From the NCBI RefSeq assembly GCF_963921235.1, contig NC_086097.1, forward strand, positions 73,410,001 through 73,474,000: a stretch of DNA of 64,000 nt, read 5' to 3'. The stretch comes from Mobula hypostoma (taxonomy: Eukaryota). The notes below the pieces were generated by a model. The model was not told the origin of the DNA, ran no database searches, and was given only the letters and a program-made list of their open reading frames with translations. Shown here one piece after another: positions 7,140-57,521 of the stretch (position 1 is the first letter of the stretch; every line of letters starts with the position of its first letter). The position numbers and the translations under genes were made by a program.

Positions 7140-7633
7140 CGTCAAGACACTGGAGCAGGGATCCAATCGCAGACACAGTACTGTGCACACAGTGATATTA
7201 ATTGAGTAACAAATCCCAAGGTACAAAGTTGGCATCAAAGTTCAGGCAGAGATCAAAACATCCAGAGAAATCCCAAAACCAGAATCGGGGAAACAGGCAG
7301 AGTCAATATGCAGATGGACAGAGTACAGATACAAATACTGGAAAGGCTCAGGAAAATTCACTGACACAATCTGGCAACAAACAGGTGAAAACACAGGACT
7401 GAACTACACTGAGCAATAAACAGAGGCAGATGATAGGTGGATCACAATGAGACACAGGTGGCAGCAATACAGGTAATAATTAGAAACAGGTGAGAGGCAG
7501 AGTACTCCGTAATACAGGGGCTGGAGTGGAGCAGGAGCAGGAGCAGGGACAGGAGCACATGACAGTACAAAACCACAGACTGACAGTTAGGGAGAAAAAA
7601 ACATAAAAAGACAGTCAACTGGAGGTACTGACA
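7140..7633 (-). repeat. 3' LTR of the Gypsy element
   Basis: Direct repeat of 11988-12397, roughly 85-90% identical by eye, with extra internal sequence; adjacent to the poly-C/G tract at about 7643-7659. Confidence 0.92.
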
Positions 7634-7659
7634 GTACTTGGGCCCCCCCCCCCCCCCCC

Positions 7660-10600
7660 ACCACAGCCACCTCCTGGCGTCACGGCAGGTAGAGCTGGGT
7701 GCTGGCGATGAAAGTACCAGATTAGAGAGGGGTCCAGGATGTTACAGGCGGGGACCCAGCACCTTTCCTCAGGATCGTAGCCCTCCCAGTCCACAAGGTG
7801 CTAGAGGCCACGGCCCCAACGATGAATGTCCAGCAGTTGATGCACTGTGAAGACTTCTGACCTATCGATGAGCCGTGGGGAGGGGGGGCAGTTTGGGGAC
7901 AGGACACAGGAGGTGGCTCATGAAAGGCTTGATGGAGGACACATGGAAGGTGGGATGAATGCAGCAGCAAATGGAGGGGAGCTTGAGACGGACGGCAGCA
8001 GGGCTGATGACCTTAGCAATGGGAAAGGGGCCAATGAAATGGGAGGAGAGCTTGCGGGAAACCACCTTGAGGGGTAGGTCTCAGGTTGAAAGCCACACAC
8101 GCTGTCCCTGGCAGTAACATGGGGCCTTGGAGCGACGGCGGTCAGCTTGACACTTGTTCCTGGCAGAGGCATAGAGAAGGGCAGAACGAATGTGCCTCCA
8201 CGTCTGCTGGCAACAGTGGATGAATGCCTCGGCATATGGAATGCCATCTTCCTCCTCCTGGGCAGGAAACAGTGGATGTAGGTAGGCAAGACAGCACTCG
8301 AAGGGGGACAGACGGGTGGATGAGGACGGTTGAGAGTTGATGGCGTACTTGGCCCAGGGTAGCTGCTGACTCCACGCAGAGGGGTTCTGGGAGACCAGAC
8401 ACGGCAATACTGTCTCTAGTTGTTGGTTGGCCCCCTTGGTCTGGCCATTGGTCTGTGAGTGGAATCCTAAAGACAGACTCGGAGGCACCCAGAAGATTAC
8501 AGAATGTCATCTAGAAGTTGGATGTGAATTGAGAGCCCCTGTCTGACACAACATCTACAGGTAAACCATGTAATTTTAAAACAGGCAGTACTAGTAATTT
8601 GGCTGTTTCTTTGGCTGAGGGGAGTTCAGGTAAAGGAATGAAGTGTACAGACTTGGAGAAACGATCAACTACTGTGAGAATGGTGGTATTACCATCTGAT
8701 GGGGGAAGACCGGTGACAAAATCCAGGGCAAGGTGGGACCAGGGTCTCTTGGGAAAAGACAGGGGTTGTTACAGACCAGCAGGTGACCGGTTAGAGTTCT
8801 TGCCTTGAGCACAGACCGAGTAGGCTGAGACAAAGTTGCAGATGTCATCTCCCATGGAGGGCCACCAGAACCACCGACTGATGAAGGCCTGAGTATGCTT
8901 GGTTCCAGGGTGACAGGATAACCGGGAAGAATGACCCCACTGCAATACCTGTGAGCGGACAGAGCTGGGAACATAAACACGGTTAGTGGGGCATTGACTA
9001 GGGGCTGCCTCGCTCTGTTGAGCAGCTTGCACAATGGATTCAATGTCCCATTGCGCTGCACCCACGAGACAGTGAGCAGGGAGGATGACATCAGGGACCT
9101 CAGGGGTCTTGGAGGAAGGAAATCTTTGGGAGAGGGCATCAGGTTTTCCATTCTTGGAACCGGGATGGAAGGATAGAGTAAAATTGAATCTTGAGGAAAA
9201 CAGGGACCCATGAGCTTGATGGGAGTTGAGATGCTTGGCCGCACGGATATTTTCCAGATTCTTGTGATCAGTCCAGACAAAGAGTGGCACCTTGGCTCCC
9301 TCCAGCCAATGCCTCCACTCCTCCAGAGCTAGCTTCACAGCCAGCAGCACCTGGTTTCCAACATCATAATTCCACTCTGTGGGAATGAGGCGGTGAGAGA
9401 AGGCAGTGCAGGGGTGTACCTTCTCATCCTTGGCCGAGCACTGAGAGAGGACAGCTCCTACACCAATGTCAGACGCATCCATCTCCACAATGAACTGCCG
9501 GTCGGTGTCGGGTTGAATCAGGATGGGGTCAGAGGTGAAATGTTCCTTCAGGTCAGAGAATGCTTTTTCGGCAACAGAGGACCAGGAGAATCTGACAGCA
9601 GATGAGGTAAGAGCAGTAAGTGGTGCAGCCAGTGTACTGTAATTTCTGATGAAGCGGCGATAGAAGTTAGCAAAGCCCAAGAAGCGTTGCAACTCCCAAC
9701 GAGTCGAAGGTTGGGGCTATTTGACCACCGCCTTGACCTTCTGTTGGTCCATCTGAAGGGAACCGCCTGAAATTACATACCCCAGGAAGGAGATGGTATT
9801 TTGATGAAACCCACATTTCTCAGCCTTCACAAAGAGCTGGTTCTCCAGAAGGCGCTGGAGAACTCTGCAGATGTGACCTGTGTGTTCAGCAAGGGCTTAG
9901 AAAAAAAAATCAAAATGTTATCGAGATACACAAAAACAAATTGGTTCAGCATGTCCCTGAAAACGTCATTTACCAGGGCTCAGAAGCCAGCAGGGGCATT
10001 GGTGAGACCGAATGGCATGACCAGATACTCATAATGGCCTGAAGTGGTGTTGAAGGCCGTCTTCCACTCGTCCCCTTCGCGGATGTAAACAAAATGGTAG
10101 TTGTTACGGAGATCAAGCTTGGTGAAAACTGAGGCTCTATGCAGTAGTTCAAATGCCAAGGTCATGAGCAGAAGAGGGTAACGGTTCTTAACAGTGACTT
10201 CATTCAGTCCCCAGTAATCAATACATGGACATCAGGAGCTGTCCTTTTCAAAGAAAAAACCAGCAGCAGCGGGGGAGGAAGGTGGCTGGATGACACCTGC
10301 AGCCAGAGACTCTTGAATGTACTTACTCATGGCTTCAGTTTCACGTACAGACAAGGGAATACAGGCAGCCTCTTTGGGGGAGATATGCCAGGCAAGAGGT
10401 CAATGACGCAATCATATGGACAACGAGGCAGTAGGGAAGTGGCCTGGAACTTGCTGAACTCAGCCTTGAGGTCCATGTATTCAGGAGGGTTGGCACTAAG
10501 GTCTGGAAATTGCTCGGGGGGATCTGGGCTTGGAGCAAAGGGGATCTGAGCATGGCAGAGGCAGTGGGAGTGACAGAATGGACTCCAGCCTACAATCTGG

Positions 10601-10900
10601 TGACTGAGCCAGTTAATGTGGGGGTTGTGCTTAACTAACCAGGGATGGCTCAGGACAATGGGAGCTTGAGGTGAGTCAATAACATAAAGGGTTAACTGTT
10701 CATGATGTTTGCTGGATAAACTGAGACTCACCGGGGCTGTGACACGGGTGATGTTGGCCAGTCTCTGACCGTTCAAGGCGTTGTCCACCAATGATGACTG
10801 GAGAGCAGACGTGGGTAACCCCCAATGGGCAGCCAAGTCGAAATCGATAAAACACCCCTCCGCACCAGAATCGACCAAGATGGAGACTGCTCGCCATTGG
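7660..10900 (-). pseudogene. Gypsy pol, frameshifted: protease, RT, RNase H, integrase, chromodomain
   Basis: VDSGA (PR); [23 protein letters not shown] and VYLDNILI (RT, YLDD decayed); [32 protein letters not shown] (RNase H); DFVTGLP and [10 protein letters not shown] (IN); [26 protein letters not shown] (chromodomain, about 7720-7845). Confidence 0.93.
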
Positions 10901-10974
10901 ATGTCCCATTCCAGGTATGAGAGTGAGTGGCGTTGAGGAGGGCCTGACAGAGGTCATGCTCACCAGTGCTCCCC

Positions 10975-11971
10975 ATCCTACTGGTGAGCGCATGGCTTTT
11001 ACTGGGCAGGTGGAGATGAAGTGATCTGGTTGGCCACAGTACAGACAGGAATAGGTGCTGATTCTCCTTTGTCTTTCAGTCAGTGTCAGGAGGGTACAGC
11101 CAACCTTCATAGCTTCAGGCTCTGGAACGGGAATTGTAGATGGGGCCAAATGGCAGGGCAATGTAGACTGATGAGGAGCTTGGAAATCTTCCAGTGTCCC
11201 CAGGGACCCTCTGGAACCCCTCCTCCTTCAGCACTGCTGAAGGCGAACATCAATACAGATGGCCAAATCCACCAGGGCTTCGAAGGTGTCAGGAAAGTCC
11301 CAGGTCACCAGCTCATCTTTGATGTCTTCGAAGAGGCCATTCATGAAGGTGTCGTACTGTGCCTCTGAGTTCCAGCTGCTGGAGGCAGCTAGGGTCCAGA
11401 ACCCTTATGACGTAATCTGACCCAGATCTGCGCCCCGGTTCATGTGCAGCATTTCACGGGCAGCCTCTCTCTCATGTTTTGAGTGATCAAACACTTTTCT
11501 CATCTCCTCAGAAAATAACTGAAAACTACTGCAGAAAGGGGAGCCTGCCTCCTGGACAGCTGTTCCCCATTCTCTCCCCCGACCGGACAGTTGGGTGATG
11601 CCGTAGGCTACCTTGGCTCGATCAGTCAGAAATATTGTTAGTTGCAAATCAAAAATGAGGGTGCACTGGGAAAGAAAAGAACGGCAGGTACCAGGCTCAC
11701 CTGAGTACTTTTCTGGAGGAGGTAGACAGGGCTGTTGGACAGGAGGAGCATGCAAGGACGCGGAGGGCAGGGCGGAAGATGCAGTCTCAGAATGTTGATG
11801 GGTGCTGTGGGACAGCTGGAGTGACTGAGTCTAGGCCACAAGATCAGCTACATTGGCAGGAAGTGACTCCACTGCCCTGAGCATGGAGTCCAGCTGCTTC
11901 TGGTGTCTCCCCAGCATCACTCCCTGTTGTTCCAGGGCAGCTCTCAGACGACCAGACTCTGTTGGATCCAT
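10975..11971 (-). pseudogene. Gypsy gag, frameshifted
   Basis: Starts MDPTESGRLRAALEQQGVMLGRHQ at 11971; PPPEKYSGEPGTCRSFLSQC motif; CCHC knuckle CLYCGQPDHFISTC. Confidence 0.9.
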
Positions 11972-11975
11972 TCAG

Positions 11976-11987
11976 GCCAGATTGTAC
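11976..11987 (-). promoter_or_regulatory. Self-priming-type primer binding site
   Basis: Minus-strand GTACAATCTGGC directly follows the 5' LTR and is complementary to minus-strand GCCAGATTGT in the LTR (7366-7375). Confidence 0.75.
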
Positions 11988-12397
11988 TGTCAGGGCACTG
12001 GAGCAGCAATCCAGTTGCAGACCCGGTATTGTGCATACAGTGATATTAACTGAGTAACAAACCGGAATTTGGAAACAGGCAGAGCTGATATGCAGACGGA
12101 CAGAGTACAGATACAAATGCTGGAAAGGCTCAGGAAAATTCACTGGCACAATCTTGACAACAAACAGGTGAAAACACAGGACTGAAATACACTGAGCAAT
12201 AAACAGAGAGGCAGATGATAGGTGGAGCACAATGAGACACAGGTGGCAGCAATACAGGTAATAATGAGAAACAGGTGAGAGACGGAGTACTCAGTAATAC
12301 AGGGGCCGAAGTACAGCAGGAGCACGTGCCAATACAAAACCACAGCCTGACAGCTGGGGGAAACACAAAAAAAAGTGTTCAACTGGAAGTACTGACA
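11988..12397 (-). repeat. 5' LTR of the Gypsy element
   Basis: TGTCAG...CTGACA termini; direct repeat of 7140-7633. Confidence 0.92.
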
Positions 12398-13599
12398 ACT
12401 TGATTCTCTTTATTAATTTAATTTGTTAAAATAAAAACTAAATACCTTTCTATAGCTCTGACACATAAGCCCCAATCCCACAGGCTTTGTTGGTTTTTCT
12501 CATGTTGATGTAAATGTGAGCATATGCCTGTTTCTTGTGAAAATAATATACATTTTCACAGTATTAATGCAGATTAACACTGCCTGTAATTTAGTAATTA
12601 CCAGTAATTCAGTGAACTGCCTGGCTAGACTATTATGAACTGCAGCTGTCTAATTGCTTTTGGTGCTGAAACCATGTTCTCCAGGGGTTTTCATCCCTTT
12701 CTAACAGCCTCACATGAACAAATTATACCACATTTTAGCCTCTGAATCCTTCCAGACTGAGTGTGCTCCAAGTAACAAAGGGTCCTTAATTAAGTCCTGA
12801 TTTGTGTTTATGAAGAAGCATCAACATGTGTTCTCATTCATTAAGGTCCTGCTTCTTGTTTTTCCAACATGGTCTTTCCGAATGTCTAAAGTAGATATTC
12901 AGGCTCGTCGGAGGGGAGGCAGGAAGATACTACCAGGTTGCTGATCAATGAGCTGTGAAAACAGCAAGGAAGCCTGTTATTATGTTTTTTGATGTGGACA
13001 AGGCATAGCTTAAAATTTCGCAGGAAAGAAATAAGATGGCTGTTCAATGGAACATAATGCAAAAGCAGTGTAACACCAGGGGATGTCATTAAAAGTAAAA
13101 GAAACCATAAGGAAACTTGATCTTTAGAATGTTTATTTTTAACTATTCATTGGCTGCCATCTAGTGTAGAAAATGCCATGCCAATTAATGCATTCACAGA
13201 GTCAAGCAGTTTATTCTATTAATCATTACTAATTATATCTGAATTCCATGTTTCTTAAAAACCTGTTAAAATCACATTAAAACTATGCTAAGTTTTGTGT
13301 GTGTGGACAATAACTGTCTCCTCAATTTGTACCAGAGTGCACGTAACCAGAAACAATTTCATTTTAAACCTGCTGAATTACTCCACTGTTTTGTGTGCTG
13401 CTCCAGATTTCAGCATCTGTGGTCTCTTGTGTTTCCACTTTCATATTCATGTTTGTCACCAAAATGATCACAAATCCCTTGATCAGAATGCTCTCTTACT
13501 TACACAGCAGAACAGAACAGGGCATAAACTGATCCACTTTTGTTTGGTCAGGCTACCTCAATTTTTTGAAAGGCACATGCAAGAGCTGGGGGGGGGGGG

Positions 13600-17520: not shown

Positions 17521-18689
17521 ATGTTGCCGGAAGATGTCACTTCATGTCTCTTTTGAGATATTGCAAAACAATTGTTTTTCCTTTTGAGCTGTAATGTACT
17601 GAAATGTAAATTAGTTATTTGTAGCAAGTTGTGTACAGCTTAGACAACTACTTGGTGCACTGAATCATCCTGATATTATTTATGAAATGCCATAAGCAAA
17701 CGGGAGAGTTTTTTGCTGCTCCTTCATGTAGTGTTTCCACTGAAAACATACCTGAGTAAGAACAAAAAATGTTGAAAATAGACTTTTAAGGCATTAATTT
17801 GCAAAACCAAAGAATATTGACTGCTTGTTTTGATTGTGCAGACCTTTCGGATTTTGGTTCAGCTGAGATGATGTCCCAAGAACTGATATAATTATAAGCA
17901 ACTGGTACATTGTCACTTTATAATTTAGGGAACTAGGTTTGTGACTTTAATTTTAAACTTGTGCAGTGATGTGGCGAGGCTCTGTAACTATTCATTTTGG
18001 CCCATTGAAACCAGTTGAAAAGCTGACAAGCTAATTTTCCAATACCAGTTCCCCTCAAACCTCGTACTTTACAGTGTAACAAATAGAAGTTTGGGTTGCT
18101 TTGAAATGCGGAGTCCTGTTGATTTGCTAACAGAACCTGAGCATTAGTGGTGAGCGGTAAAAGTGGGAAGAGAAAGGGATCGACAGCACTACCTGCTGTG
18201 GGGGTATTGGGGAAAGAGTTTGGTGATATACTGCATTCAGTGTTCATTGCAGATTTGATGACTACTTAGTGCAGCGTCTACACTTGGGCTGCAGGGATGA
18301 TGCTGAGTTTCACATGCCTGCCACTTTAATTAATCATCCCACTCCTACTGTGACTCCCTTTTCTGTGGCTTTCTGCACTGTTACAATTGGGCTGTAAGCA
18401 AGGTAGAGGGACAATGTTTTATATTCCAACTGGGCACATTGCAGCCTTCAGGGATCAGTGTAGGATTCTCCAACATTCACACTTTTTCTGTTTGTATAAG
18501 AACTGACTATTTTTACATGCAGTCCTTTATTTTATTTACATATTCTCGTCTGCTAGCCCTTCCCAATAGGGCAAACTATAGGGAGCATTTAACAGACTAC
18601 ATAATGTTAGCTATAATTTACATAGACAAACTTAATATGGTCTTAACAGCTTAATAATTTCATCCTATTAGAGAAATTCCCATTGATCC

Positions 18690-18965
18690 ACCCTTCATCT
18701 TCTCCCACCTTCTCTGCTACCTAGATTAACTCTCTTCTCAGTTCAGTGAAGAACCCCAGGCATGAAATGTTAACGGATTCTTTTACCTCTGATGCATCTG
18801 GTTTGCTGAGTTTCTGAGCATTTTTGTTGTGATAATCAAAATTAAAATTGCAGATGTTAGAATTCTCAAATAAAGCAAAAATTACTGGAAATACTCAGCA
18901 GGTCAAGTCATATCTGTGGAAAGGAACAGCTAATATTTCAGGTCGGAGACCTTTTGTTGGACCTG
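18690..18965. mobile_element. Two old Penelope terminal-repeat fragments in opposite orientation
   Basis: TTGCTGAGTTTCTGAGCATTTTT on plus, then TGCAGATGTTAGAA...CTGGAAATACTCAGCAGGTCA as a minus-strand copy. Confidence 0.5.
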
Positions 18966-19152
18966 AGAAAAGAAGCAAATTAAGGTGTAAGTAAGGTTAG
19001 GAAGGGGATTTCTCTGATGGGGTAAGAATGGGATGATCAGGGGAATAAGCTATAAATAAGGTTATCTGGTCATTAGGTGAGTGGAAACAGGGTGAAATCC
19101 TTAATCCTAAATTTAGGATTCTTAATTCTTATAAATCCTAAATAGCATTCTT

Positions 19153-19742
19153 ACAACTATATCAGGTAAATTTGAGGCTGGCTTGTAAACAAATATGGCC
19201 TAGCCCTTCTTAATTGGCTGAAGCTCACTAGCACCCTGGGGAAGGCAGGAGATGGGGAGTCGAGAATCTCCTTGGATTCAGTGGGCAGCATGTGTAGTAA
19301 GACAGCAGCTGCCTAAGAACTGCCAGAGGGGTCCACATTAAGGCAAGGCCTGTGGCCTTGCCTTGTTTTGCTTGATCTTACCTTGATGACCCAATTTTCA
19401 AGGTCACAAGTGGCAGCCACTTATTTGGGACAACGCTTAAAGAACAAAAACTAATTGAGAAAGTAGCCAGGATTCCCTTCATTTATTTGAGACAGTTTGT
19501 GCTGAAGGGTCTTGGCCCAAGACGTCAACTGTACTTTTTCTATAGATGCTACCTGGCCTGCTGAGTTCCTCCAGCATTTTGTGTGTGTTGCTTGAATGTC
19601 CAGCATCTGTAGATTTTCTCTTCTGTGTGATTGTCTTTTTTACCTTTTTAACTATTTCCATGAAATTGGCTAATTGGAGCAGCTGCTTAATTGGGTCAAA
19701 ATGTACTGGCCCCTATGTGCCCCAATTAACCAAAATGCACTG
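19153..19742. mobile_element. pogo/Tigger-like MITE interrupted by a Penelope terminus
   Basis: Repeated TAATTGG/CCAATTA subterminal motifs; right end ...CCCCAATTAACCAAAATGCACTG; left end is degenerate. Confidence 0.45.
19497..19625 (+). mobile_element. Short Penelope terminal-repeat insertion with decayed hammerhead motif
   Basis: GCTGAAGGGTCTTGGCCCAAGACGTCAACTG...CCTGGCCTGCTGAGTTCCTCCAGCATTTTGTGTG. Confidence 0.75.
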
Positions 19743-20062
19743 CACACCACAAAGTTAGAAACAGAGTTGAAATGCAAACAAGTGAAATGTTATGTTAAAC
19801 TATTATTTAAACTGCAGGCTACGCAGCCACATAGTTTGATTTCCACCCCTTGTGATTTATGAGCTTGACATATACCTACAGCGCCAGAGTTTTGACTTGA
19901 AACTAACAACTTCTGATGATATTCTCACCTCCGAACATCAAAATAACTGACATTTGCACTTTAATTTATCTTTCAGATGCTCTGTCTGTGAAAGAAGCAT
20001 TTCTGTCAGGGTTTGAGCAAAAGAACCCCTTTACCAGACAAGATTAGTGGACTTTCCCTTTA

Positions 20063-23000
20063 TGTCATAAGGTGGTGGCTGGGAACGGACCCAAGTGCAA
20101 GACACAGACACTGAAGTACTAGGGACAGGACGAGGATACAGGGCGATGGCAAGGACATGGACAGGAAAAGCAGGAACCTGGAACAGGACTGAACAAGAGA
20201 GCTAGGAGCCCAGGCTTGGACTCCGAGCCAGAGACTGGACAAGGACCCAGTACCTGGGTCTTGCCTCTGGCTCGGACCCCAGAACTAGGCAAGGTCAAGG
20301 CTTGGCAGGCAGGCAGGACGAAGCAGAATTCTACAGGCTAGAAGCTTGAGGCTAGAGACTAGGCTTGGCTTGGCAAGAGGCTGGAGGCGGGAGATGAGGC
20401 GAGGCTGGGGCTGGAGGCGAGAGACGAGGCGAGGCTGGGGCTGGAGGCGGGAGACGAGGCGAGGCTGGGGCTGGAGGCGGGAGACGAGGCGAGGCTGGGG
20501 CTGGAGGCGGGAGACGAGGCGAGGCTGGGGCTGGAGGCGGGAGACGAGGCGAGGCTGGGGCTGGAGGCGGGAGACGAGGCGGGGCTGGAGGCGGGAGGCG
20601 AGGCTGGGGCTGGAGGCGGGAGACGAGGCGAGGCTGGGGCTGGAGGCGGGAGACGAGGCGAGGCTGGGGCTGGAGGCGGGAGGCGAGGCGGGGCTGGGGC
20701 TGGAGGCGGGAGGCGAGGCGAGGCTGGGGCTGGAGGCGGGAGACGAGGCTGGGGCGGGAGGCGAGGCGGGGCTGGAGGTGGGAGACGAGGCGAGGCTGGG
20801 GCTGGAGGCGGGAGACGAGGCGAGGCTGGGGCTGGAGGCGGGAGACGAGGCGAGGCTGGGGCTGGAGGCGGGAGACGAGGCGGGGCTGGAGGCGGGAGAC
20901 GAGGCTGGGGCTGGAGGCGAGGCTGGGGCTGGAGGCGGGAGACGAGGCGAGGCTGGGGCTGGAGGCGGGAGACGAGGCGAGGCTGGGGCTGGAGGCGGGA
21001 GACGAGGCGAGGCTGGGGCTGGAGGCGGGAGACAAGGCGAGGCGGGAGACGAGGCGAGGCTGGGGCTGGAGGCGGGAGGCGAGGCTGGGGCTGGAGGCGA
21101 GGCTGGGGCTGGAGGCGGGAGACGAGGCGAGGCTGGGGCTGGAGGTGGGAGACGAGGCGAGGCTGGGGCTGGAGGCGGGAGACGAGGCGAGGCTGGGGCT
21201 GGAGGCGGGAGACGAGGCGAGGCTGGGGCTGGAGGCGGGAGACGAGGCGAGGCTGGGGCTGGAGGAGGGAGACGAGGCGAGGCTGGGGCTGGAGGCGGGA
21301 GGCGGGGCTGGAGGCGGGAGGCGGGGCTGGAGGCGGGAGACGAGGCGAGGCTGGGGCTGGAGGTGGGAGACGAGGCGAGGCTGGGGCTGGAGGCAAGGCT
21401 GGGGCTGGAGGCGGGAGACGAGGCGAGGCTGGGGCTGGAGGTGGGAGACGAGGCTGGGGCTGGAGGAGGGAGACGAGGCGAGGCTGGGGCTGGAGGCGGG
21501 AGGCGGGGCTGGAGGCGGGAGACGAGGCGAGGCTGGGGCTGGAGGTGGGAGACGAGGCGAGGCTGGGGCTGGAGGCAAGGCTGGGGCTGGAGGCGGGAGA
21601 CGAGGCGAGGCTGGGGCTGGAGGCGGGAGACGAGGCTGGGGCTGGAGGCGGGAGGCGGGGCTGGGGCTGGAGGCGGGAGGCGAGGCGAGGCTGGGGCTGG
21701 AGGCGGGAGACGAGGCGAGGCTGGGGCTGGAGGCGGGAGGCGAGGTGGGGCTGGAGGCGGGAGACGAGGCGAGGCTGGGGCTGGAGGCGGGAGACGAGGC
21801 GAGGCTGGGGCTGGAGGCGGGAGACGAGGCGAGGCTGGGGCTGGAGGCGGGAGACGAGGCGAGGCTGGGGCTGGAGGCGGGAGACGAGGCTGGGGCTGGA
21901 GGCGGGAGACGAGGCGAGGCTGGGGCTGGAGGCGGGAGACGAGGCGAGGCTGGGGCTGGAGGCGGGAGACGAGGCGAGGCTGGGGCTGGAGGCGGGAGAC
22001 GAGGCGGGGCTGGAGGCGGGAGGCGAGGCTGGGGCTGGAGGCGGGAGACGAGGCGAGGCTGGAGGCGGGAGACGAGGCGAGGCTGGGGCTGGAGGCGGGA
22101 GACGAGGCGAGGCTGGGGCTGGAGGCGGGAGACGAGGCGAGGCTGGGGCTGGAGGCGGGAGACAAGGCGAGGCGGGAGACGAGGCGAGGCTGGGGCTGGA
22201 GGCGGGAGGCGCGGCTGGGGCTGGAGGCGGGAGGCGAGGCTGGGGCTGGAGGCGAGGCTGGGGCTGGAGGCGGGAGACGAGGCGAGGCTGGGGCTGGAGG
22301 TGGGAGACGAGGCGAGGCTGGGGCTGGAGGCGGGAGACGAGGCGAGGCTGGGGCTGGAGGCGGGAGACGAGGCAAGGCTGGGGCTGGAGGAGGGAGACGA
22401 GGCGAGGCTGGGGCTGGAGGCGGGAGGCGGGGCTGGAGGCGGGAGACGAGGCGAGGCTGGGGCTGGAGGTGGGAGACGAGGCGAGGCTGGGGCTGGAGGC
22501 AAGGCTGGGGCTGGAGGCGGGAGACGAGGCGAGGCTGGGGCTGGAGGCGGGAGACGAGGCTGGGGCTGGAGGAGGGAGACGAGGCGAGGCTGGGGCTGGA
22601 GGCGGGAGGCGGGGCTGGAGGCGGGAGACGAGGCGAGGCTGGGGCTGGAGGTGGGAGACGAGGCGAGGCTGGGGCTGGAGGCGAGGCTGGGGCTGGAGGC
22701 GGGAGACGAGGCGAGGCTGGGGCTGGAGGTGGGAGACGAGGCGAGGCTGGGGCTGGAGGCGGGAGACGAGGCGAGGCTGGGGCTGGAGGCGGGAGACGAG
22801 GCAAGGCTGGGGCTGGAGGAGGGAGACGAGGCGAGGCTGGGGCTGGAGGCGGGAGGCGGGGCTGGAGGCGGGAGACGAGGCGAGGCTGGGGCTGGAGGTG
22901 GGAGACGAGGCGAGGCTGGGGCTGGAGGCAAGGCTGGGGCTGGAGGCGGGAGACGAGGCGAGGCTGGGGCTGGAGGCGGGAGACGAGGCTGGGGCTGGAG

Positions 23001-26000
23001 GAGGGAGACGAGGCGAGGCTGGGGCTGGAGGCGGGAGGCGGGGCTGGAGGCGGGAGACGAGGCGAGGCTGGGGCTGGAGGTGGGAGACGAGGCGAGGCTG
23101 GGGCTGGAGGCAAGGCTGGGGCTGGAGGCGGGAGACGAGGCGAGGCTGGGGCTGGAGGCGGGAGACGAGGCTGGGGCTGGAGGCGGGAGACGAGGCGAGG
23201 CTGGGGCTGGAGGCGGGAGACGAGGCGAGGCTGGGGCTGGAGGCGGGAGGCGGGAGGCGAGGCTGGGGCTGGAGGCGGGAGGCGAGGCTGGGGCTGGAGG
23301 CGGGAGACGAGGTGAGGCTGGGGCTGGAGGCGGGAGGCGAGGCGGGAGACGAGGTGAGGCTGGGGCTGGAGGCGGGAGGCGGGGCTGGAGGCGGGAGACG
23401 AGGCGAGGCTGGGGCTGGAGGCGGGAGGCGGGGCTGGAGGCGGGAGACGAGGCGAGGCTGGGGCGGGAGACGAGGCGAGGCTGGGGCGGGAGGCGAGGCG
23501 AGGCTGGGGCTGGAGGCGGGAGGCGAGGCTGGGGCTGGAAGAGGCTGGGGCTGGCGGCGGGAGGCGGGGCGAGGCTGGGGCGGGAGGCGAGGCTGGGGCT
23601 GGAGGCGGGAGACGAGGCGAGGCTGGGGCTGGAGGCGGGAGACGAGGCGAGGCTGGGGCTGGAGGCGGGAGGCGAGGCGGGGCTGGGGCTGGAGGCGGGA
23701 GGCGAGGCGAGGCTGGGGCTGGAGGCGGGAGACGAGGCTGGGGCGGGAGGCGAGGCGGGGCTGGAGGCGGGAGACGAGGCGAGGCTGGGGCTGGAGGCGG
23801 GAGACGAGGCGAGGCTGGGGCTGGAGGCGGGAGACGAGGCGAGGCTGGGGCTGGAGGCGGGAGACGAGGCGGGGCTGGAGGCGGGAGACGAGGCTGGGGC
23901 TGGAGGCGAGGCTGGGGCTGGAGGCGGGAGACGAGGCGAGGCTGGGGCTGGAGGCGGGAGACGAGGCGAGGCTGGGGCTGGAGGCGGGAGACGAGGCGAG
24001 GCTGGGGCTGGAGGCGGGAGACAAGGCGAGGCGGGAGACGAGGCGAGGCTGGGGCTGGAGGCGGGAGGCGAGGCTGGGGCTGGAGGCGAGGCTGGGGCTG
24101 GAGGCGGGAGACGAGGCGAGGCTGGGGCTGGAGGTGGGAGACGAGGCGAGGCTGGGGCTGGAGGCGGGAGACGAGGCGAGGCTGGGGCTGGAGGCGGGAG
24201 ACGAGGCGAGGCTGGGGCTGGAGGCGGGAGACGAGGCGAGGCTGGGGCTGGAGGAGGGAGACGAGGCGAGGCTGGGGCTGGAGGCGGGAGGCGGGGCTGG
24301 AGGCGGGAGGCGGGGCTGGAGGCGGGAGACGAGGCGAGGCTGGGGCTGGAGGTGGGAGACGAGGCGAGGCTGGGGCTGGAGGCAAGGCTGGGGCTGGAGG
24401 CGGGAGACGAGGCGAGGCTGGGGCTGGAGGTGGGAGACGAGGCTGGGGCTGGAGGAGGGAGACGAGGCGAGGCTGGGGCTGGAGGCGGGAGGCGGGGCTG
24501 GAGGCGGGAGACGAGGCGAGGCTGGGGCTGGAGGTGGGAGACGAGGCGAGGCTGGGGCTGGAGGCAAGGCTGGGGCTGGAGGCGGGAGACGAGGCGAGGC
24601 TGGGGCTGGAGGCGGGAGACGAGGCTGGGGCTGGAGGCGGGAGGCGGGGCTGGGGCTGGAGGCGGGAGGCGAGGCGAGGCTGGGGCTGGAGGCGGGAGAC
24701 GAGGCGAGGCTGGGGCTGGAGGCGGGAGGCGAGGTGGGGCTGGAGGCGGGAGACGAGGCGAGGCTGGGGCTGGAGGCGGGAGACGAGGCGAGGCTGGGGC
24801 TGGAGGCGGGAGACGAGGCGAGGCTGGGGCTGGAGGCGGGAGACGAGGCGAGGCTGGGGCTGGAGGCGGGAGACGAGGCTGGGGCTGGAGGCGGGAGACG
24901 AGGCGAGGCTGGGGCTGGAGGCGGGAGACGAGGCGAGGCTGGGGCTGGAGGCGGGAGACGAGGCGAGGCTGGGGCTGGAGGCGGGAGACGAGGCGGGGCT
25001 GGAGGCGGGAGGCGAGGCTGGGGCTGGAGGCGGGAGACGAGGCGAGGCTGGAGGCGGGAGACGAGGCGAGGCTGGGGCTGGAGGCGGGAGACGAGGCGAG
25101 GCTGGGGCTGGAGGCGGGAGACGAGGCGAGGCTGGGGCTGGAGGCGGGAGACAAGGCGAGGCGGGAGACGAGGCGAGGCTGGGGCTGGAGGCGGGAGGCG
25201 CGGCTGGGGCTGGAGGCGGGAGGCGAGGCTGGGGCTGGAGGCGAGGCTGGGGCTGGAGGCGGGAGACGAGGCGAGGCTGGGGCTGGAGGTGGGAGACGAG
25301 GCGAGGCTGGGGCTGGAGGCGGGAGACGAGGCGAGGCTGGGGCTGGAGGCGGGAGACGAGGCAAGGCTGGGGCTGGAGGAGGGAGACGAGGCGAGGCTGG
25401 GGCTGGAGGCGGGAGGCGGGGCTGGAGGCGGGAGACGAGGCGAGGCTGGGGCTGGAGGTGGGAGACGAGGCGAGGCTGGGGCTGGAGGCAAGGCTGGGGC
25501 TGGAGGCGGGAGACGAGGCGAGGCTGGGGCTGGAGGCGGGAGACGAGGCTGGGGCTGGAGGAGGGAGACGAGGCGAGGCTGGGGCTGGAGGCGGGAGGCG
25601 GGGCTGGAGGCGGGAGACGAGGCGAGGCTGGGGCTGGAGGTGGGAGACGAGGCGAGGCTGGGGCTGGAGGCGAGGCTGGGGCTGGAGGCGGGAGACGAGG
25701 CGAGGCTGGGGCTGGAGGTGGGAGACGAGGCGAGGCTGGGGCTGGAGGCGGGAGACGAGGCGAGGCTGGGGCTGGAGGCGGGAGACGAGGCAAGGCTGGG
25801 GCTGGAGGAGGGAGACGAGGCGAGGCTGGGGCTGGAGGCGGGAGGCGGGGCTGGAGGCGGGAGACGAGGCGAGGCTGGGGCTGGAGGTGGGAGACGAGGC
25901 GAGGCTGGGGCTGGAGGCAAGGCTGGGGCTGGAGGCGGGAGACGAGGCGAGGCTGGGGCTGGAGGCGGGAGACGAGGCTGGGGCTGGAGGAGGGAGACGA

Positions 26001-27423
26001 GGCGAGGCTGGGGCTGGAGGCGGGAGGCGGGGCTGGAGGCGGGAGACGAGGCGAGGCTGGGGCTGGAGGTGGGAGACGAGGCGAGGCTGGGGCTGGAGGC
26101 AAGGCTGGGGCTGGAGGCGGGAGACGAGGCGAGGCTGGGGCTGGAGGCGGGAGACGAGGCTGGGGCTGGAGGCGGGAGACGAGGCGAGGCTGGGGCTGGA
26201 GGCGGGAGACGAGGCGAGGCTGGGGCTGGAGGCGGGAGGCGGGAGGCGAGGCTGGGGCTGGAGGCGGGAGGCGAGGCTGGGGCTGGAGGCGGGAGACGAG
26301 GTGAGGCTGGGGCTGGAGGCGGGAGGCGAGGCGGGAGACGAGGTGAGGCTGGGGCTGGAGGCGGGAGGCGGGGCTGGAGGCGGGAGACGAGGCGAGGCTG
26401 GGGCTGGAGGCGGGAGGCGGGGCTGGAGGCGGGAGACGAGGCGAGGCTGGGGCGGGAGACGAGGCGAGGCTGGGGCGGGAGGCGAGGCGAGGCTGGGGCT
26501 GGAGGCGGGAGGCGAGGCTGGGGCTGGAAGCGGGAGGCAAGGCGAGGCTGGGGCTGGCGGCGGGAGGCGGGGCGAGGCTGGGGCGGCAGGCGGGGCTGGA
26601 GGTGGGAGGCGGGGCTGGAGGCGAGGCGAGGCGGGAGGCGGGAGATGAGGCAAGGCTGAGTCTGGGACGGGAGGCAAGGCTGGGGCGGGAGGCGGGAGAC
26701 AAGGCTGAGGCTGGGACAGGAGGCGGGGCTGGGGCTGGAGGCGGGAGGCGAGGCTGGAGGCGGGAGACGAGGCGGGGCTGGAGGTGAGGCGGGGGTTGGG
26801 GCTGGAGGCAGGAGACGAGGCTGGGGCTGGAGGCGGGAGGCGAGGCGAGGTTGGGGCTGGAGGAGGGAGACTTGAGGCGAGGCTGGGGCTGGAGGAGGGA
26901 GACGAGGCGAGGTTGGGGCTGGAGGAGGGAGACTTGAGGCAAGGCTGGGGCTGGAGGAGGGAGACTTGAGGCGAGGCTGGGCTGCTCCTCTTGGGCAGGG
27001 CGCAGATCTCCTGGGCAGGGCGCGGATCACTACCCAACTGAAGGAAAGGACAGAACCAACCCCAGGTAACGGCAAGACAGCCTGGCTTACCTGGGCGGAG
27101 GCAAGGGACATGAAAGGAGCTAGGTACAGGGTGGCTCCAGGACCAGACAGCAAGACAAGGCAGGGCTTCTGGCAAAGCAAGGCGAGACAGAACTTAAGGC
27201 GAGGAAACAGAAGGCAGAGGAAGGGATCCAAGGAGTAAGGACAAGAACAATCCAGCAACCACGCCCTGGTCTCTGGAGGTATTTATGCAGCCAGCCCCAA
27301 CTAGCATCAGCTGCCTCAATTAGCTCAACAAGGACAGAAACAGGGTAGATAGGAAACCTGGAGCAAGGGTCGATTGACCAGACCGTGAACCGGAATATGG
27401 ACTTCACAGACCGGACTATGACA
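20063..27423 (-). mobile_element. Giant solo LTR (Gypsy/sushi-like) containing an expanded minisatellite
   Basis: Termini TGTCATA...TATGACA; perfect 5-bp TSD CTTTA at 20058-20062 and 27424-27428; minus-strand TATA-like CATAAATA (27280-27287) about 30 nt before GCTGGATTGT; U5-like end resembles that of the 7140 LTR; no gag/pol. Confidence 0.85.
20377..26980. repeat. G-rich 30-bp minisatellite with higher-order structure
   Basis: Unit GAGGCGAGGCTGGGGCTGGAGGCGGGAGAC with short deletion variants; marker variants recur at 429 bp and 2989 bp. Confidence 0.97.
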
Positions 27424-27452
27424 CTTTATCTTTCAGATTTTCTGCCATGAGC

Positions 27453-27455
<3 letters not shown>

Positions 27456-27491
<36 letters not shown>
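27456..27491. repeat. (TC)n microsatellite
   Basis: About 18 uninterrupted TC units. Confidence 0.95.
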
Positions 27492-27494
<3 letters not shown>

Positions 27495-28479
27495 TTTCTT
27501 ATCTCTCCGGCTGCAATCCTGACAACCCCATATGTTGTGCAATGGTAATCCTAAAGTCTTCTGGCAGCATTTTAAGAAGAAATATTCTAGTGACACTGTC
27601 TGTTTTGTGAGGAAAGGAGACATGTAGAATGGTTTTGTGTCTTGTGTTTATTTCAGTTTGCTGCCTAAGTTTCACAAAGAATCAACGAGGATAGATCGCT
27701 AACTGTATAAGTTTGGCAGAAACTGTGACATCTATTATCTGTACTTTTTTAAATCTCAGATGATCTGCTTCTCTAGCAAGCAGTGGTTGGTGATCAACTC
27801 CAGCTGGGAATCAGCCAGTATACCTGTATTTTAGCTTTTGTGCCTTGTATCCATCTTTAGGCCGTACATATTAGTAACTGTTTTGTTAACCTGCCGTACC
27901 ATATTCAACTATGTTCACAAAGGCACCCAGTCCTTCTTTCCTTACGCCATCCTTAAAACTGTAAAATTATCTCATTGTTCATTTCAAAAGTCATAACTTT
28001 CCATTTCCCATGTCTACCTTCATATGCATCCATCTCACCTGCCCCTCAGCACCTGGGGTTGATGACTATTTGCCACACTTACTACAAATATTTCTCGCTC
28101 AGCTTTGGATCATCAACATGGTCGGAAGTTATACTTGGTCATCTCATCTGGCCCCTCAAAACAAATTTCTATGATCCTTGGAGCATTCTTGCACTTTACC
28201 AAATGCAATGCTGAACATAAGGTATTTTTCCCCTTGGTTTTCTGATCCTGAACAAATCCACATTCCTTGGTCATGGTGGACCCAGCCATCTGCATAGTTT
28301 TACTGCCTGGACTTGCCTTTTAAGGGTTCAGAGTTCTGATTGACTTCACTGTCCACACACAAGAGGCAACTAGCAAGGCAGAGCCTTCATCAGGCAGTAT
28401 TCATACCTCAGGCAACTTTCTGCTCAGGACCTGCTCCAGGAAGACCATTGTCAATAATTTCACAAAAAAGATTTGGTTA

Positions 28480-29660
28480 TAGTATAGAAGTGTAGAGTAC
28501 AGCATAGGAACAGGCCATTCGGCTGACACTAATCCCTCCTACCTACACCATGTCCATATCCCTCCATCTTTCTTATATCCATGTGCCTTTCCAAACATCT
28601 CTTAAAAAGCCTCTGATGTATTTGCCATTACCACCATACCAAGTAGTGCATTCCAGACATCCATGACTCTCTGAGTAAAAAACATACCCCTCACATCCCC
28701 CTTTAACCTAGCCCCTCTCACCTTCAATGTATGCTGTCTGGAATTAGACATTTCAACCCTGGGAAACAGATACTCTCTATCCATTCCATCTATGCCTCTC
28801 ATAATCTTGTAAACATCTATCAGATCTCCCTCAACCTCCTTGGCTGCAGAGAAAACAACTTGAGTTTATCCAGACTCTCAGGATAGCACATGCCCTCTAA
28901 ACCAGGCAACATCCTTGTAAACCCTTCTGCACCCTCTCCAAAGCCTCAACATCCTTCCTGTAGTGGGTCGACAAGAACTGTACCCAGTACTCCAGATGGC
29001 CTAACCAGTGTTTTATAAAGTTACAATGTAAGCTCCTGACTTTTGATCTCAGTGCCTCGACTAATGAAAGCAATCATTCTATAAGCCTTAACCACCTTGT
29101 CAACCCGTGTAGCCACTTTCAAGGAGCTGTGATCTTGGATCCCAGATCTCCCTGCTCAGCAACACTGTTAAGGACCTTGCCCTTAGTGTACTGTCTCCTT
29201 ACATTTGCCCTGCCAAGGTGCAGCACCACACATTTGTCTGGGTTAAACTCCATCTGCCATTTCTCAGCCCATACTATGCTGTATTCTTTGCCAGTGTTCT
29301 ACACTATCCACAATTCCACCAATCTTGGTATCATCTGCAGATTTACTAACCCACCTATCTACATTTTCATCCAGGTCACTTATATGACAGCAGAGATCCC
29401 AGCACAGATCCCTGTGGAACTTCACTAATTACAGACCACTAGCTCAAATAAGTCCCTTCAAGCACTACTCTCTGTCTTGTATGTGCAGGCCAGTTCTGAA
29501 TCCAAGCAGCCAATTCATCACTGATCCCATGCATCGTAATCTTCTGGATTAGCCTCCCATAAGGGATATTGTCAAACACCTTATTAAAATCCATGTAGGC
29601 AATGTCTACTGCCCTACCCTCATCAATCCCATCACCTTGTCAAAAAACTCAATCAGGTCT
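28480..29660 (-). mobile_element. Decayed CR1 LINE 3' fragment
   Basis: RGIDGMDREYLFPRV and FFTQRVMDVWNAL; DGVPQGSVLG-like and MDFNKVFD remnants. Confidence 0.85.
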
Positions 29661-52036: not shown

Positions 52037-54150
52037 AGATCAGAATCAAATTTATTATCACCGGCGTGTGACGTGAAATTTGTTAACTTAGCAGCAGCAG
52101 TTCAATGCAATACATAATCCAACAGAGAAAAAATTAATAATAAATAACATAAAAATAATAAAAAAGAAGTAAATCAATTACGGTATACGTATATTGAATA
52201 GATTTTTAAAAGTGCAAAGACAGAAATACTGTATATTTTTTAAAAAGTGAGCTAGTGTCCAAAGATTCAATGTCCATTTAGGAATCAGATGACAGAGGGG
52301 AAGAAGCTGTTCCTGAATCACTGAGTGTGTGCCTTCAGGCTTCTGTACCTCCTGCCTGATGGTAACAGTGAGAAAAGGTCATGCCCTGGGTGCTGGAGGT
52401 CCGTAATAATGGACGCTGCCTTTCTGAGACATCACTCTCTGAAGATGTCCTGGGTACTTTATAGGCTAGTACCCAATATGGAACTGACTAGATTTACAAC
52501 CTTTTGCAGCTTCTTTCGGTCCTGTGCAGTAGGCCCTCCATACCAGACAGTGATGCAGCCTGTCAGAATGCTCTCCATGGTACATCTATAGAATTTTTGA
52601 GTGTACTTGTTGACATTCCAAATCTCTTCAAACTCCTAATAAAGTATAGCCGCTGTCTTGCCTTCTTTATTACTACATCGATATTTTGGGACCAGGTTAG
52701 ATCCTCAGAGATCTTGACAGCCAGAAACTTGAAACTGCTCACTCTCTCCACTTCTGATCCCTCTATGGGGATTGGTATGTGTTCCTTCATCTTACCCTTC
52801 CTGAGGTCCACCATCAGCTCTTTCGTCTTACTGACGTTGAGTGCCAGGTTGTTGCTGTGGCACCACTCCACTAGTTGGCATATCTCACTCCTGTACGCCC
52901 TCTCGTCACCACCTGAGATTCTACCAACTATGGTTGTATCATCAGCAAATTTATAGCTGGTATTTGGGCTATGCCTAGCCACACAGCCATGTGTATATAG
53001 AGAGTAGAGTAGTGGGCTAAGCACACACCCTTGAGGTGCGCCAGTGTTGATTGTCAGTGAGGAGGATATGTTATCACCAATCCACAGATTGTGGTCTTCC
53101 ACTTAGGAAGTTGAGGATCCAATTGCAGAGGGAGGTACAGAGGCCCAAGTTCTGCAACTTCTCAATCAGGATTGTGGGAATGATGGTATTAAATGCTGAG
53201 CTATAGTCGATGGACAGCATCCTGACATAGGTGTTTGTGTTGTTCAGGTGGTCTAAAGCCGTGTGGGGAGCCATTGAGATTGCATCTGCTGTTGACCTAC
53301 TGTGGCAATAGGCAAATTGCAGTGGGTCTAGGTCCTTGCTGAGGCTGAGTCTAGTCATGACTAACCTCTCAAAGCATTTCATCACTGTCGATGTGAGTGC
53401 TGCCCAGTGATAGTCATTAAGGCAGCCCACGTTATTCTTCTAAGGCACTGGTATAATTGTTGCCTTTTTGAAGCAAGTGGGAACTTCCACCCATTGCAGT
53501 GAGAGGTTGAAAATGTCCTTGAATACTCCCGCTAGTTGGTCGGCACAGGTTTTCAGAGCCTTACCAGGTACTCCATCGGGACCTTCCGCCTTACGAGGGT
53601 TCACTCTCATTAAAGACAGCCTAACATTGGCCTCTGAGACAGAGATCACAGGGTCATCAGGTGCAGCAGGAATCTTCACAGTTGCAGTTGTGTTCTCCCT
53701 TTCAAAGCATGCATAGAAGGCATTGAGTTCATCTGGTAGTGAAGCATCGTTGCCATTCATGCTATTGGATTTCGCCTTGTAGGAAATAATGTCTTGCAGA
53801 CCCTGCGAGAGTTGGCGTGTATCCGATGTTGTCTCCAACCTCGCTCAAAATTGTCTCTTTGCCCTTGAAATAGCCCTCTGCAAATCATACCTGGTTTTCT
53901 GGTACAGGCCTGGGTCGCCAGACGAATGCCACAGATCTAGCCTTCAGCAGTCGACGTACCTCCTGGTTCATCCATAGTTTTTGGTTTGGGAATGCACAGT
54001 AAGTCTTTCTGGGCACACGCTCATCCACACAGGTTTTAATGAAGTCAGTAACAGCTGCAGCGTACTCACTCAGGTTCAAAGATGAACCCCTGAATACAGT
54101 CCAGTCCACCGATTCAAAGCAGTCCTGTAGGCGCTCCTGTGCTTCCCTTG
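52037..54150 (-). mobile_element. 5'-truncated Rex1/Babar-type LINE, comparatively well preserved
   Basis: [45 protein letters not shown] and KFADDTT; TTCTGA-type tail at about 52040. Confidence 0.9.
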
Positions 54151-55997: not shown

Positions 55998-56740
55998 TCA
56001 GAATCAGTATCAGGCTTATTATCACTGGTATGTGTCGTGAAATTTGTTAACTTAGCAGCAGCTCAATGCAATACATAATATTGAAGGGAAAAATAAATAA
56101 AATGAAAAAAAAAGTAAATCAATTACAGTATGTTGAATAGATTTAAAAGCGTGCAAAAAACAGAAATAATATATATTTAAGAAGTGAGGTAGTGTTCACG
56201 GGTTCAGAGTCCATTTAGGAATCCGATGGCAGAGGGGAAGAAGCTGTTCCTGAATTGCTGAGTGTGTCCCTCCAGGCTTCTGTACTTCCTACCTGATGGT
56301 AACAGTGAGAAAAGGGCATGCCCTGGGTGCTGGAGGTCCTTGATAATGGATGCTGCCTTTCTGAGACACTGCTCCTTGAAGATGTCCTGGGTACTTTGCA
56401 GGATAGTACCCAAGATGGAGCCAACTAAATTTACAGCCCTCTGCAGCTTCTTTCGGTCCTGTGCAGTAGCCCCTCCATACCAGACAGTGATGCAGCCTGT
56501 CAGAATGCTCTCCATGGTACATCTATAGAGTTTTTGAGTGTACTTGTTGACATTCCAAATCTCTTCAAACACCTTATGAAGTATAGTCGCTCTTTTGCCT
56601 CCTTTATAACTGCATCGATATGTTGGGACCAGGTTAGATCCTCAGGGATCTTGACACCCAGGAACTTGAAGCTGCTCGCTCTCTCCACTTCTGATCCCTC
56701 TGTGAGGGTTGGTCTGTGTTCCTTCGTCTTACACTTCCTG
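55998..56740 (-). mobile_element. Rex1/Babar 3' fragment nested in the Penelope element
   Basis: Close relative of 52037-52805; Penelope sequence resumes collinearly at both ends. Confidence 0.88.
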
Positions 56741-57014
56741 ATGGTGAAGTAAGGATTAGTGCGGAGGGAGTGGAAAGCCAAGCATTCAGAAAGAATGAGG
56801 TTGGAATAGGAGGGAGGAGTGTTAAAGTCTAGACGATTAATGTCCGTTTGGTAGTTGGCAATGAAATGATCCAGAGCATGCAGAAGACCAGGGTGGGTTG
56901 TGCAGGAAGAGGAGGAGGGTTGAAGATGGGAGAAGGGGTCATTGGTGTGGGGTGGGGATAACTTGCCAAGGAAATAGGCTCGGAGATGGAAGCAGCGGAA
57001 GAAGAGCTTAACAT

Positions 57015-57521
57015 TGCCATAGAGGGAGTACAAAGAAGGTTCACCAGATTGATTCCTGGGATGGCAGGACTTTCATATGAAGAAAGACTGGATGAACTAG
57101 GCTTGTACTCATTGGAATTTAGAAGATTGAGGGGGGATCTGATTGAAAGGTATAAAATCCTAAAGGGATTGGACAGGCTAGATGCAGGAAGATTGTTCCC
57201 GATGTTGGGGAAGTCCAGAACGAGGGGTCACAGTTTGAGGGTAAAGGGGAAGCCTTTTAGGACTGAGATTAGGAAAAACTTCTTCACACAGAGAGTGGTG
57301 AATCTGTGGAATTCTCTGCCACAGGAAACAGTTGAGGCCAGTTCATTGGCTATATTTAAGAGGGAGTTAGATATGGCCCTTGTGGCTACGGGGATCAGTG
57401 GGTATGGAGGGAAGGCTGGGGCGGGGTTCTGAGTTGGATGATCAGCCATGATCATAATAAATGGCGGTGCAGGCTCGAAGGGCCGAATGGCCTACTCCTG
57501 CACCTATTTTCTATGTTTCTA
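57015..57521 (+). mobile_element. Young CR1 3' fragment nested in the Penelope element
   Basis: Nearly identical to about 60439-60945; open frame to the stop at 57432; TTTCTATG tail. Confidence 0.92.

Follow-up and report, generated by a model that had tools for sequence, protein, structure and literature searches.

The passage from transposable element to satellite DNA, a process reviewed in PMC12628747, has close precedents for the locus described here. In Lathyrus, nine of eleven satellites were reported to have arisen from short arrays in the 3' untranslated region (UTR) of Ogre long terminal repeat (LTR) retrotransposons (PMC7004042). The mouse minisatellites Ms6-hm and Hm-2 lie within LTRs of the MaLR family (Kelly 1994, via PMC9659126), and Table 1 of the latter article gives Ctenomys RPCS and Monopterus MALREP as LTR-derived cases. 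The present analysis concerns a stretch of 64,000 nucleotides of the 3.48-Gb genome of Mobula hypostoma (contig NC_086097.1, hereafter C1, positions 73,410,001-73,474,000), referred to below as the window, in which an element of 7,361 bp encloses a 6.6-kb minisatellite array. In our estimate there is a probability of about 85% that this element is a minus-strand solo LTR, and that its array is the long form of a repeat seed carried by a whole LTR family and likely grew after insertion.

The family shares with the Ogre/Tat elements of Lathyrus and Pisum, as these are portrayed in the relevant sections of PMC7004042, short hypervariable arrays that occupy a fixed site in most copies, are dispersed by transposition and are occasionally expanded and locally homogenised. 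According to the same source, the Ogre elements are large and autonomous, their arrays are situated in the 3' UTR, and expansion is concentrated in primary constrictions of these plants. The present family, a non-autonomous animal element with a core of 160 bp, carries its array within the LTR itself (in the predicted R/U5 region), and whole expansions are still framed by the two LTR halves and a target site duplication (TSD). As with Ms6-hm and Hm-2, the minisatellite is G-rich, and the LTR in which it grows belongs to a vertebrate family that is retrotransposon-like and non-autonomous. However, the mouse cases comprise two loci with units of 4-5 bp according to the account in PMC9659126, while in the present family the units measure 24-37 bp, the seed recurs in almost every one of the thousands of copies, and the arrays reach 168 kb. 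A search of open-access text gave nothing specific on a comparable phenomenon in skates.

The window element and its family

The preliminary description of the window, made from its letters alone, had proposed a solo LTR delimited by TGTCATA and TATGACA and by a perfect CTTTA TSD. These limits were confirmed, the termini lying at 20063-20069 and 27417-27423 and forming TG..CA ends with a 7-bp inverted repeat (Table 1). Its figure of about 760 bp of non-repetitive sequence was also accurate, since 758 bp were measured (316 bp at 20063-20378 plus 442 bp at 26982-27423). The tenfold inflation that it put forward holds only with respect to those 758 bp; with respect to the median LTR of the family (1,115 bp) the window LTR is ∼6.6-fold longer. 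In agreement with its statement that gag and pol are missing, no such coding sequence was found in the window LTR, the long open reading frames (ORFs) being only frames through the 30-bp (10-codon) repeat, and six 500-amino-acid (aa) pieces of the array ORFs gave no match to Pfam families. A coding reading of the ORFs of 2,200-2,300 aa (the longest of 2,299 aa, on both strands) was ruled out by the 30-bp period together with the lack of a Pfam match. No Rfam family was detected within 18000-29500.

Searches across the genome returned 3,180 first-look candidates for the left flank of the array (40 scored, with 92-95% identity) and 4,164 for the right flank (40 scored, 83-92%). Outside the window, both flanks were mapped onto 58 loci, the copies closest to the window flanks. 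They appeared in matching order and orientation within ±1.5 kb in 48 of these, and in 55 once the sequence of ten open cases had been extended; the refuting condition named in the preliminary description, flanks never joined in other copies, is thereby contradicted. In the three unjoined loci, the array runs into unrelated sequence (L007/L062), no right flank lies within 10 kb (L043/L073), or the right flank breaks off before the LTR terminus is reached (L050). The termini TGTCATA/TATGACA recurred in nearly all of the 48 further LTRs for which both termini could be read; of these, 28 displayed a perfect 5-bp TSD, 7 a TSD matching at 4/5 positions, 11 adjoined an internal piece, and 2 had no TSD. 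Because TSDs are thus a property of the family, the ends of the window element and its CTTTA repeats are beyond chance.

The family is organized as LTR, 160-bp internal piece and LTR, plus numerous solo LTRs. LTR length ranged from 696 to 1,775 bp (n = 48). At the 10 junctions read, the core carried a primer binding site (PBS) beside the 5' LTR and a polypurine tract (PPT) beside the 3' LTR. It starts with GAAC(G/A)ATCCAGCC right after ...TATGACA (window minus strand) in 9 of the 10, and ends in the purine tract GAGGGGGGAATAC, immediately before TGTCATA. This layout fixes the element sense as the minus strand of the window, as had been predicted. Neither side of the window copy is bordered by a core, and blastn revealed neither an internal piece nor a second LTR of the family elsewhere in the window; hence, it is a solo LTR.

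The core itself yielded 515 first-look candidates, and all 30 loci examined were flanked by an LTR on both sides; therefore, the family as observed is non-autonomous. No autonomous partner appeared among these 30 loci, and the Tf1/Sushi-type Gypsy element neighbouring the window copy shares only chance-level words with the family. The gag and pol genes of an autonomous Ty3/Gypsy element are missing from the 160-bp core, which holds no coding sequence. Whole elements were bounded by TSDs, namely GAAAC (perfect) and AAGGG/AAGGA and TAGTC/TCGTC (both 4/5). The family is a non-autonomous LTR retrotransposon present in thousands of copies.

Terminal-repeat retrotransposons in miniature (TRIMs) have very short LTRs, the whole element being miniature. 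With TRIMs and large retrotransposon derivatives (LARDs), as commonly defined, the family has in common a minute non-coding core, limited to a PBS and a PPT and enclosed by two LTRs, together with a high copy number and many solo LTRs. Nevertheless, its LTRs of ∼1.1 kb (median, 1,115 bp; n = 48) far exceed those of TRIMs and fall outside their size range, and its 160-bp core is far below that of LARDs.

Tandem Repeats Finder (TRF) resolved the minisatellite of the window LTR as a single array with a period of 30, periods of 60 and 90 being reported as well; matches amounted to 75% and indels to 14%. Its plus strand contains 61% G and 77% G+C, with 8.8 CpG per 100 bp, which places it above most sister arrays in both G+C (63-73% in the latter) and CpG (3.1-9.7 per 100 bp). 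The commonest unit is 30 bp long (85 of 226 anchor-delimited units), and a higher-order pattern of 7 units recurs. A block of ∼104 units is present twice, at an offset of 3,004 bp and with 96.2% identity by self-megablast, and the string of units gave an autocorrelation of 0.84 at lag 104. Units of the GAGACTT type, common to the family, were confined to the U3-side edge, all three occurrences being in the last 600-bp bin. A unit variant private to the window array has GAGACTT replaced by GAGACGAGG.

That the array consists approximately of one 3.0-kb block twice over would also fit an artifact, in which the LTR and the repeat are real and the 6.6-kb length was inflated or deflated by the assembler, for example through a false duplication of the block. 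Repeat arrays are prone to assembly errors, one sister array includes a gap of 200 N, and the length of the window array is supported by the assembly alone. However, 16% of the aligned units differ between the two blocks, and a 3.8% block difference argues against a trivial duplication by the assembler, without being a substitute for read evidence. The window array is free of N, and this assembly holds no fewer than 20 further loci where arrays of 2-168 kb have intact flanks, and TSDs where the ends were read. We regard a length artifact as improbable.

Seed arrays and their probable growth in place

The preliminary description had also suggested that the family bears a repeat seed that expands locally, and this was substantiated when the array length was measured in other copies. 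By TRF on all loci, nearly every copy bore an array at the same site, typically of 200-800 bp, whose period was 24-40 and in most cases 31-33, with the sub-motifs GAGGCG, GGCTGGAG and GAGACTT. Segments of 43-44 bp and ∼77 bp located beside the array were also tandemly repeated in other copies, and the middle of the LTR is a hypervariable region. Among copies that retain both flanks and TSDs, the length of the array between the flanks ranged from ∼0 to 168 kb. Nine LTRs longer than 2 kb were found among the 58 loci, five of them longer than 5 kb (5.1, 5.1, 15.0 and 30.1 kb, plus an incomplete copy of at least 7.3 kb).

A 1.2-kb array probe produced 1,615 first-look candidates, corresponding to ∼17 distinct loci among the scored matches, and it was by means of this probe that the very long arrays were found (Table 1). 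Shorter expanded arrays measured 8.0, 6.7, 4.4, 4.3, 4.3, 3.2 and 2.1 kb; one of the 4.3-kb cases (L028/L067, C1:115.96 Mb) has both flanks and a perfect GTCTT TSD. The largest array belongs to one solo LTR of 168.7 kb, 7.2 Mb from the window, that reads left flank, array and right flank. Its units are of 24/31 bp and include a private GAGACTAGGGGC variant, and its N gap lies near 66,182,077-66,182,288. The window copy is not exceptional, given that at least seven single LTRs hold arrays of 14-168 kb.

Four of the arrays on C1, namely those of 6.7 kb (61.88 Mb), 167.8 kb (66.07-66.24 Mb) and 3.2 kb (71.14 Mb) and the 6.6-kb array of the window (73.43 Mb), fall together with a concatemer at 78.78 Mb (see below) inside 17 Mb of the 256-Mb contig, which may reflect an expansion-prone domain or a sampling effect.

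Both LTRs of one element are identical at the time of insertion. In the element L068/L030, the 5' LTR carried an array of 5.06 kb and the 3' LTR one of 0.31 kb; in L070/L049, with a perfect GAAAC TSD, the two arrays measured 1.28 and 0.24 kb. When the arrays were compared through their 24-mers, a fraction of 0.89 of those of the second half of the window array was found in its first half, and sharing within the other twelve long arrays was 0.34-0.94. The fraction of window 24-mers found in these twelve was 0.00-0.10, and 0.000 in the 168-kb array. Unequal arrays in paired LTRs, variants private to each locus and the history of units and blocks legible in the window array thus point to growth in place.

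These observations also bear on the possibility that an older free-standing satellite was captured by an ancestor of the LTR, the long arrays being its remnants. Vondrak et al. raise capture as a formal alternative for Ogre-linked satellites in the corresponding part of their article (PMC7004042), and the loci seen here are only ∼17 out of the 1,615 candidates of the array probe. Against this, every long array examined adjoins an LTR flank in the correct orientation. Both flanks enclose 20 arrays, with lengths of 1.3-168 kb, and one further copy (L062) has one flank only and is incomplete at its other end. Furthermore, all 14 long-array LTRs whose ends were read display a 5-bp TSD (8 perfect and 6 at 4/5). 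Taken with the private variants and the unequal paired LTRs, the flanks and TSDs favour a derivation of the long arrays from the element, and the reverse order of events appears very unlikely.

A second, macrosatellite-like path of tandem growth was observed in the same family. One locus (L057) contains three LTRs and two cores, and at C1:78,775,000-78,796,800 (L137-L140) there is a head-to-tail concatemer of at least 7 units of ∼3.6 kb, each consisting of an LTR plus the 160-bp core, where every LTR carries a common ∼2-kb insert between right-flank positions ∼221 and 223. Concatemers of the type LTR-internal-LTR are the satellite substrate in the model of McGurk and Barbash, as outlined in PMC12628747, and the family forms them too. 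That route multiplies whole LTR-core units, whereas the window array multiplies a 30-bp unit within one LTR.

Predicted promoter and self-primer, and position of the array

A TATA-like box and a self-primer motif had been noted upstream of the array on the minus strand, and both were found to be conserved in the family (Table 1). The 12-mer GCTGGATTGTTC was exact in 49 of 57 other copies, and in 44 of the 57 it was separated from the box CATAAATA by the same distance as in the window, exactly 31 nt counted from the start of the box. Counted from the start of the element, the first base of the motif is number 168 in the window copy and lies between 161 and 172 in 44 other copies. The PBS GAACRATCCAGCC is the reverse complement of this 12-mer, with a complementarity of 12-13 nt that includes one G-U wobble pair in the G variant of the PBS (5 of 10 PBS variants), and it does not begin with TGG. 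We estimate the chance expectation of a given 12-mer at about 7 per 100,000 LTRs of 1.1 kb.

Self-priming of the kind predicted here is described for the Tf1/Sushi group in the part of PMC6317226 devoted to it, and Table 3 of PMC3601003 gives the Sushi att motifs as TGTYANR ... CNTNACA, with AATAAA in the LTR. As in that group, it is to an LTR stretch just past a TATA-like box, and not to a tRNA, that the PBS following the 5' LTR is complementary. Of the termini, TGTCATA conforms to the 5' att motif; the 3' end TATGACA agrees with its counterpart at 6/7 positions and the end CATGACA, found in many sister copies, at 7/7. On the other hand, the family differs from the Tf1/Sushi elements of these sources in having no coding sequence from which a phylogenetic placement could be made, no AATAAA in the LTR, and a primer and PBS that in a typical copy lie ∼950 nt apart. 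The element could alternatively be read as a foldback element or a DNA transposon of the non-autonomous type that has an internal repeat, inverted terminal repeats of 7 bp and a TSD of 5 bp; taken by themselves, the inverted termini and the TSD would fit. This reading is scarcely credible: the TG..CA ends conform to TGTYANR, the att motif of Sushi-type elements (PMC3601003, Table 3), and the direct pairs around a conserved 160-bp piece, with its purine tract and its 12- to 13-nt complement of an LTR motif, make up a paired-LTR structure that excludes it.

A decayed Tf1/Sushi-type Gypsy element is located on the minus strand of the window at 7276-12402, with LTRs at 7276-7640 and 12059-12402 that are 83% identical. 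Its broken frames encode gag DUF4939, a zinc knuckle, a protease, RVT_1, RNase H, Integrase_H2C2, rve and SH3_Tf2-1, and it has a self-primer pair of its own, GCCAGATTGT (7375-7366) and ACAATCTGGC (11985-11976). No relation between this element and the minisatellite-LTR family was detected by blastn.

The U5-like end that had been recognized downstream of the array abuts the PBS in paired copies. Since the array is placed between the primer motif and this U5 end, it would belong to the R/U5 region. The preliminary description had located it in the transcribed R/U5 part; this stood as far as its position downstream of the box and the 12-mer and before the U5 end is concerned, while R and U5 are not separable, given that AATAAA and ATTAAA were absent from all 48 LTRs. 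The sole hexamer resembling a poly(A) signal in the LTR is CATAAA, within the TATA-like box. If this box also directs polyadenylation, R would be short and the array would lie in U5.

The following sequence of events can be proposed. The transcript would start at GCTGGATTGTTC, and this stretch, folded back onto the PBS, would serve as the primer of reverse transcription, as it does in Tf1/Sushi elements. An array located in the R/U5 leader would then be copied at each new insertion, thereby spreading the seed. In the window, growth may have proceeded by steps, from a 30-bp unit to a 7-unit pattern and then to the duplication of a 3.0-kb block, a last step that would have doubled the array. Unequal exchange or replication slippage would account for these changes. 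The array probably has no function of its own.

Several considerations weigh against the reading of the window element as a solo LTR with an array grown in place from a family seed. We infer the growth of the window array after insertion from a solo LTR, which has no partner for comparison, and its 6.6-kb length is that of the assembly alone. The largest sister array includes a 200-N gap; the 58 loci, as the copies closest to the window flanks, are a non-random sample, and the set recovered with the array probe is biased to long arrays. The canonical poly(A) signals are lacking in the 48 LTRs, and the fold-back of primer and PBS would have to bridge ∼950 nt in a typical copy. The transcription start, the R/U5 borders and self-priming are predictions from motifs, and the assignment to Ty3/Gypsy, with no autonomous partner in hand, is indirect.

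As for the surroundings of the element, the flank of the insertion site (19743-20062) is single-copy in the genome. The 13-mer TTATCTTTCAGAT that follows the insertion site (27424-27441) recurs ∼90 bp upstream of it (19962-19981), probably by chance, and a perfect (TC)18 microsatellite is present at 27456-27491, 33 bp downstream of the LTR. Farther away, direct repeats at 52039-52804/56003-56741 (85%) and 57014-57522/60438-60946 (97%) occur among reverse transcriptase fragments of the long interspersed nuclear element (LINE) type, with LINE-type ORFs (RVT_1 with ALKBH8_N) at 52563-53102, 56500-57033 and 59648-60856; these are probably neighbouring or duplicated LINE copies.

Table 1. Parts of the window element (window coordinates) and the most expanded LTR arrays found elsewhere in the genome
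Feature	Position	Strand	Evidence or remarks
TSD CTTTA, left copy	20058..20062		Identical to 27424-27428
Solo LTR, 7,361 bp	20063..27423	-	Ends, TSD, flanks joined elsewhere, orientation from PBS/PPT of paired copies
U5 end of LTR	20063..20334	-	Abuts PBS in paired copies
43-44-bp segment, single in window	20335..20378	-	Own arrays in other copies, e.g., at least 1.5 kb in L041
Minisatellite array, 6,603 bp, ∼221 units	20379..26981	-	TRF
First copy of ∼3.0-kb block (∼104 units)	20379..24006	-	Tandem partner at 23383-26981
∼77-bp leader segment, single in window	27042..27118	-	2-6 tandem copies (period 58-69) in other members
GCTGGATTGTTC, predicted transcript start and self-primer	27245..27256	-	Complementary to PBS of paired copies
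Predicted U3, 167 nt, beginning TGTCATAG in element sense	27257..27423	-	Boundary predicted from motifs
TATA-like box CATAAATA	27280..27287	-	Conserved in 51/57 other copies
TSD CTTTA, right copy	27424..27428		Perfect match to left copy
Sister array, 167.8 kb	C1:66,068,792-66,237,534		TSD CATGC, perfect; one 200-N gap
Sister array, 71.5 kb	C36		Period 31, 2,319 copies, 92% matches, no N; TSD 4/5
Sister array, 29.4 kb	C5		TSD 4/5
Sister array, 27.8 kb	C63		TSD perfect
Sister array, 23.9 kb	C1:105.5M		TSD perfect
Sister array, 14.1 kb	C76		TSD perfect
Sister array, 14.1 kb	C58		TSD 4/5 after a 3-bp shift at LTR start

Implications for satellite origin

The origin of satellites from arrays in LTR retrotransposons is a known process, of which this family is a further case, unusually clean and large-scale. 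What is distinct here is the predicted location of the seed in the LTR leader of a non-autonomous, putatively self-priming family with a 160-bp core, its near-universal presence, the large size of the arrays, and the preservation of flanks and TSDs. In most cases, the origin of a satellite has to be worked out at a stage when its flanks no longer exist. In this family, arrays ranging from a few units to 168 kb are still framed by the halves of one LTR and by a TSD, so that each locus comes with a known origin and orientation of the array, a known starting state and, through LTR divergence, a molecular clock. The growth of arrays can thus be measured in relation to age, to location on the chromosome and to whether the LTR is solo or paired.

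There are also consequences for annotation. LTRs of tens of kilobases and G-rich, CpG-rich blocks in this genome belong to one repeat family, and the long ORFs that run through the arrays are artifacts of the 10-codon period.

A broader and tentative possibility, which we hold to be less probable than its contrary, is that a single self-priming, non-autonomous LTR family acts as a genome-wide nursery of satellites, in which the seed has grown independently to 14-168 kb in at least seven single LTRs, each with its two halves and TSD retained. The cluster on C1 (61.9, 66.1-66.2, 71.1 and 73.4 Mb, plus the 78.8-Mb concatemer) may then mark a domain permissive for expansion, possibly pericentromeric. 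If so, the genome would offer a dated and replicated series of satellite births.

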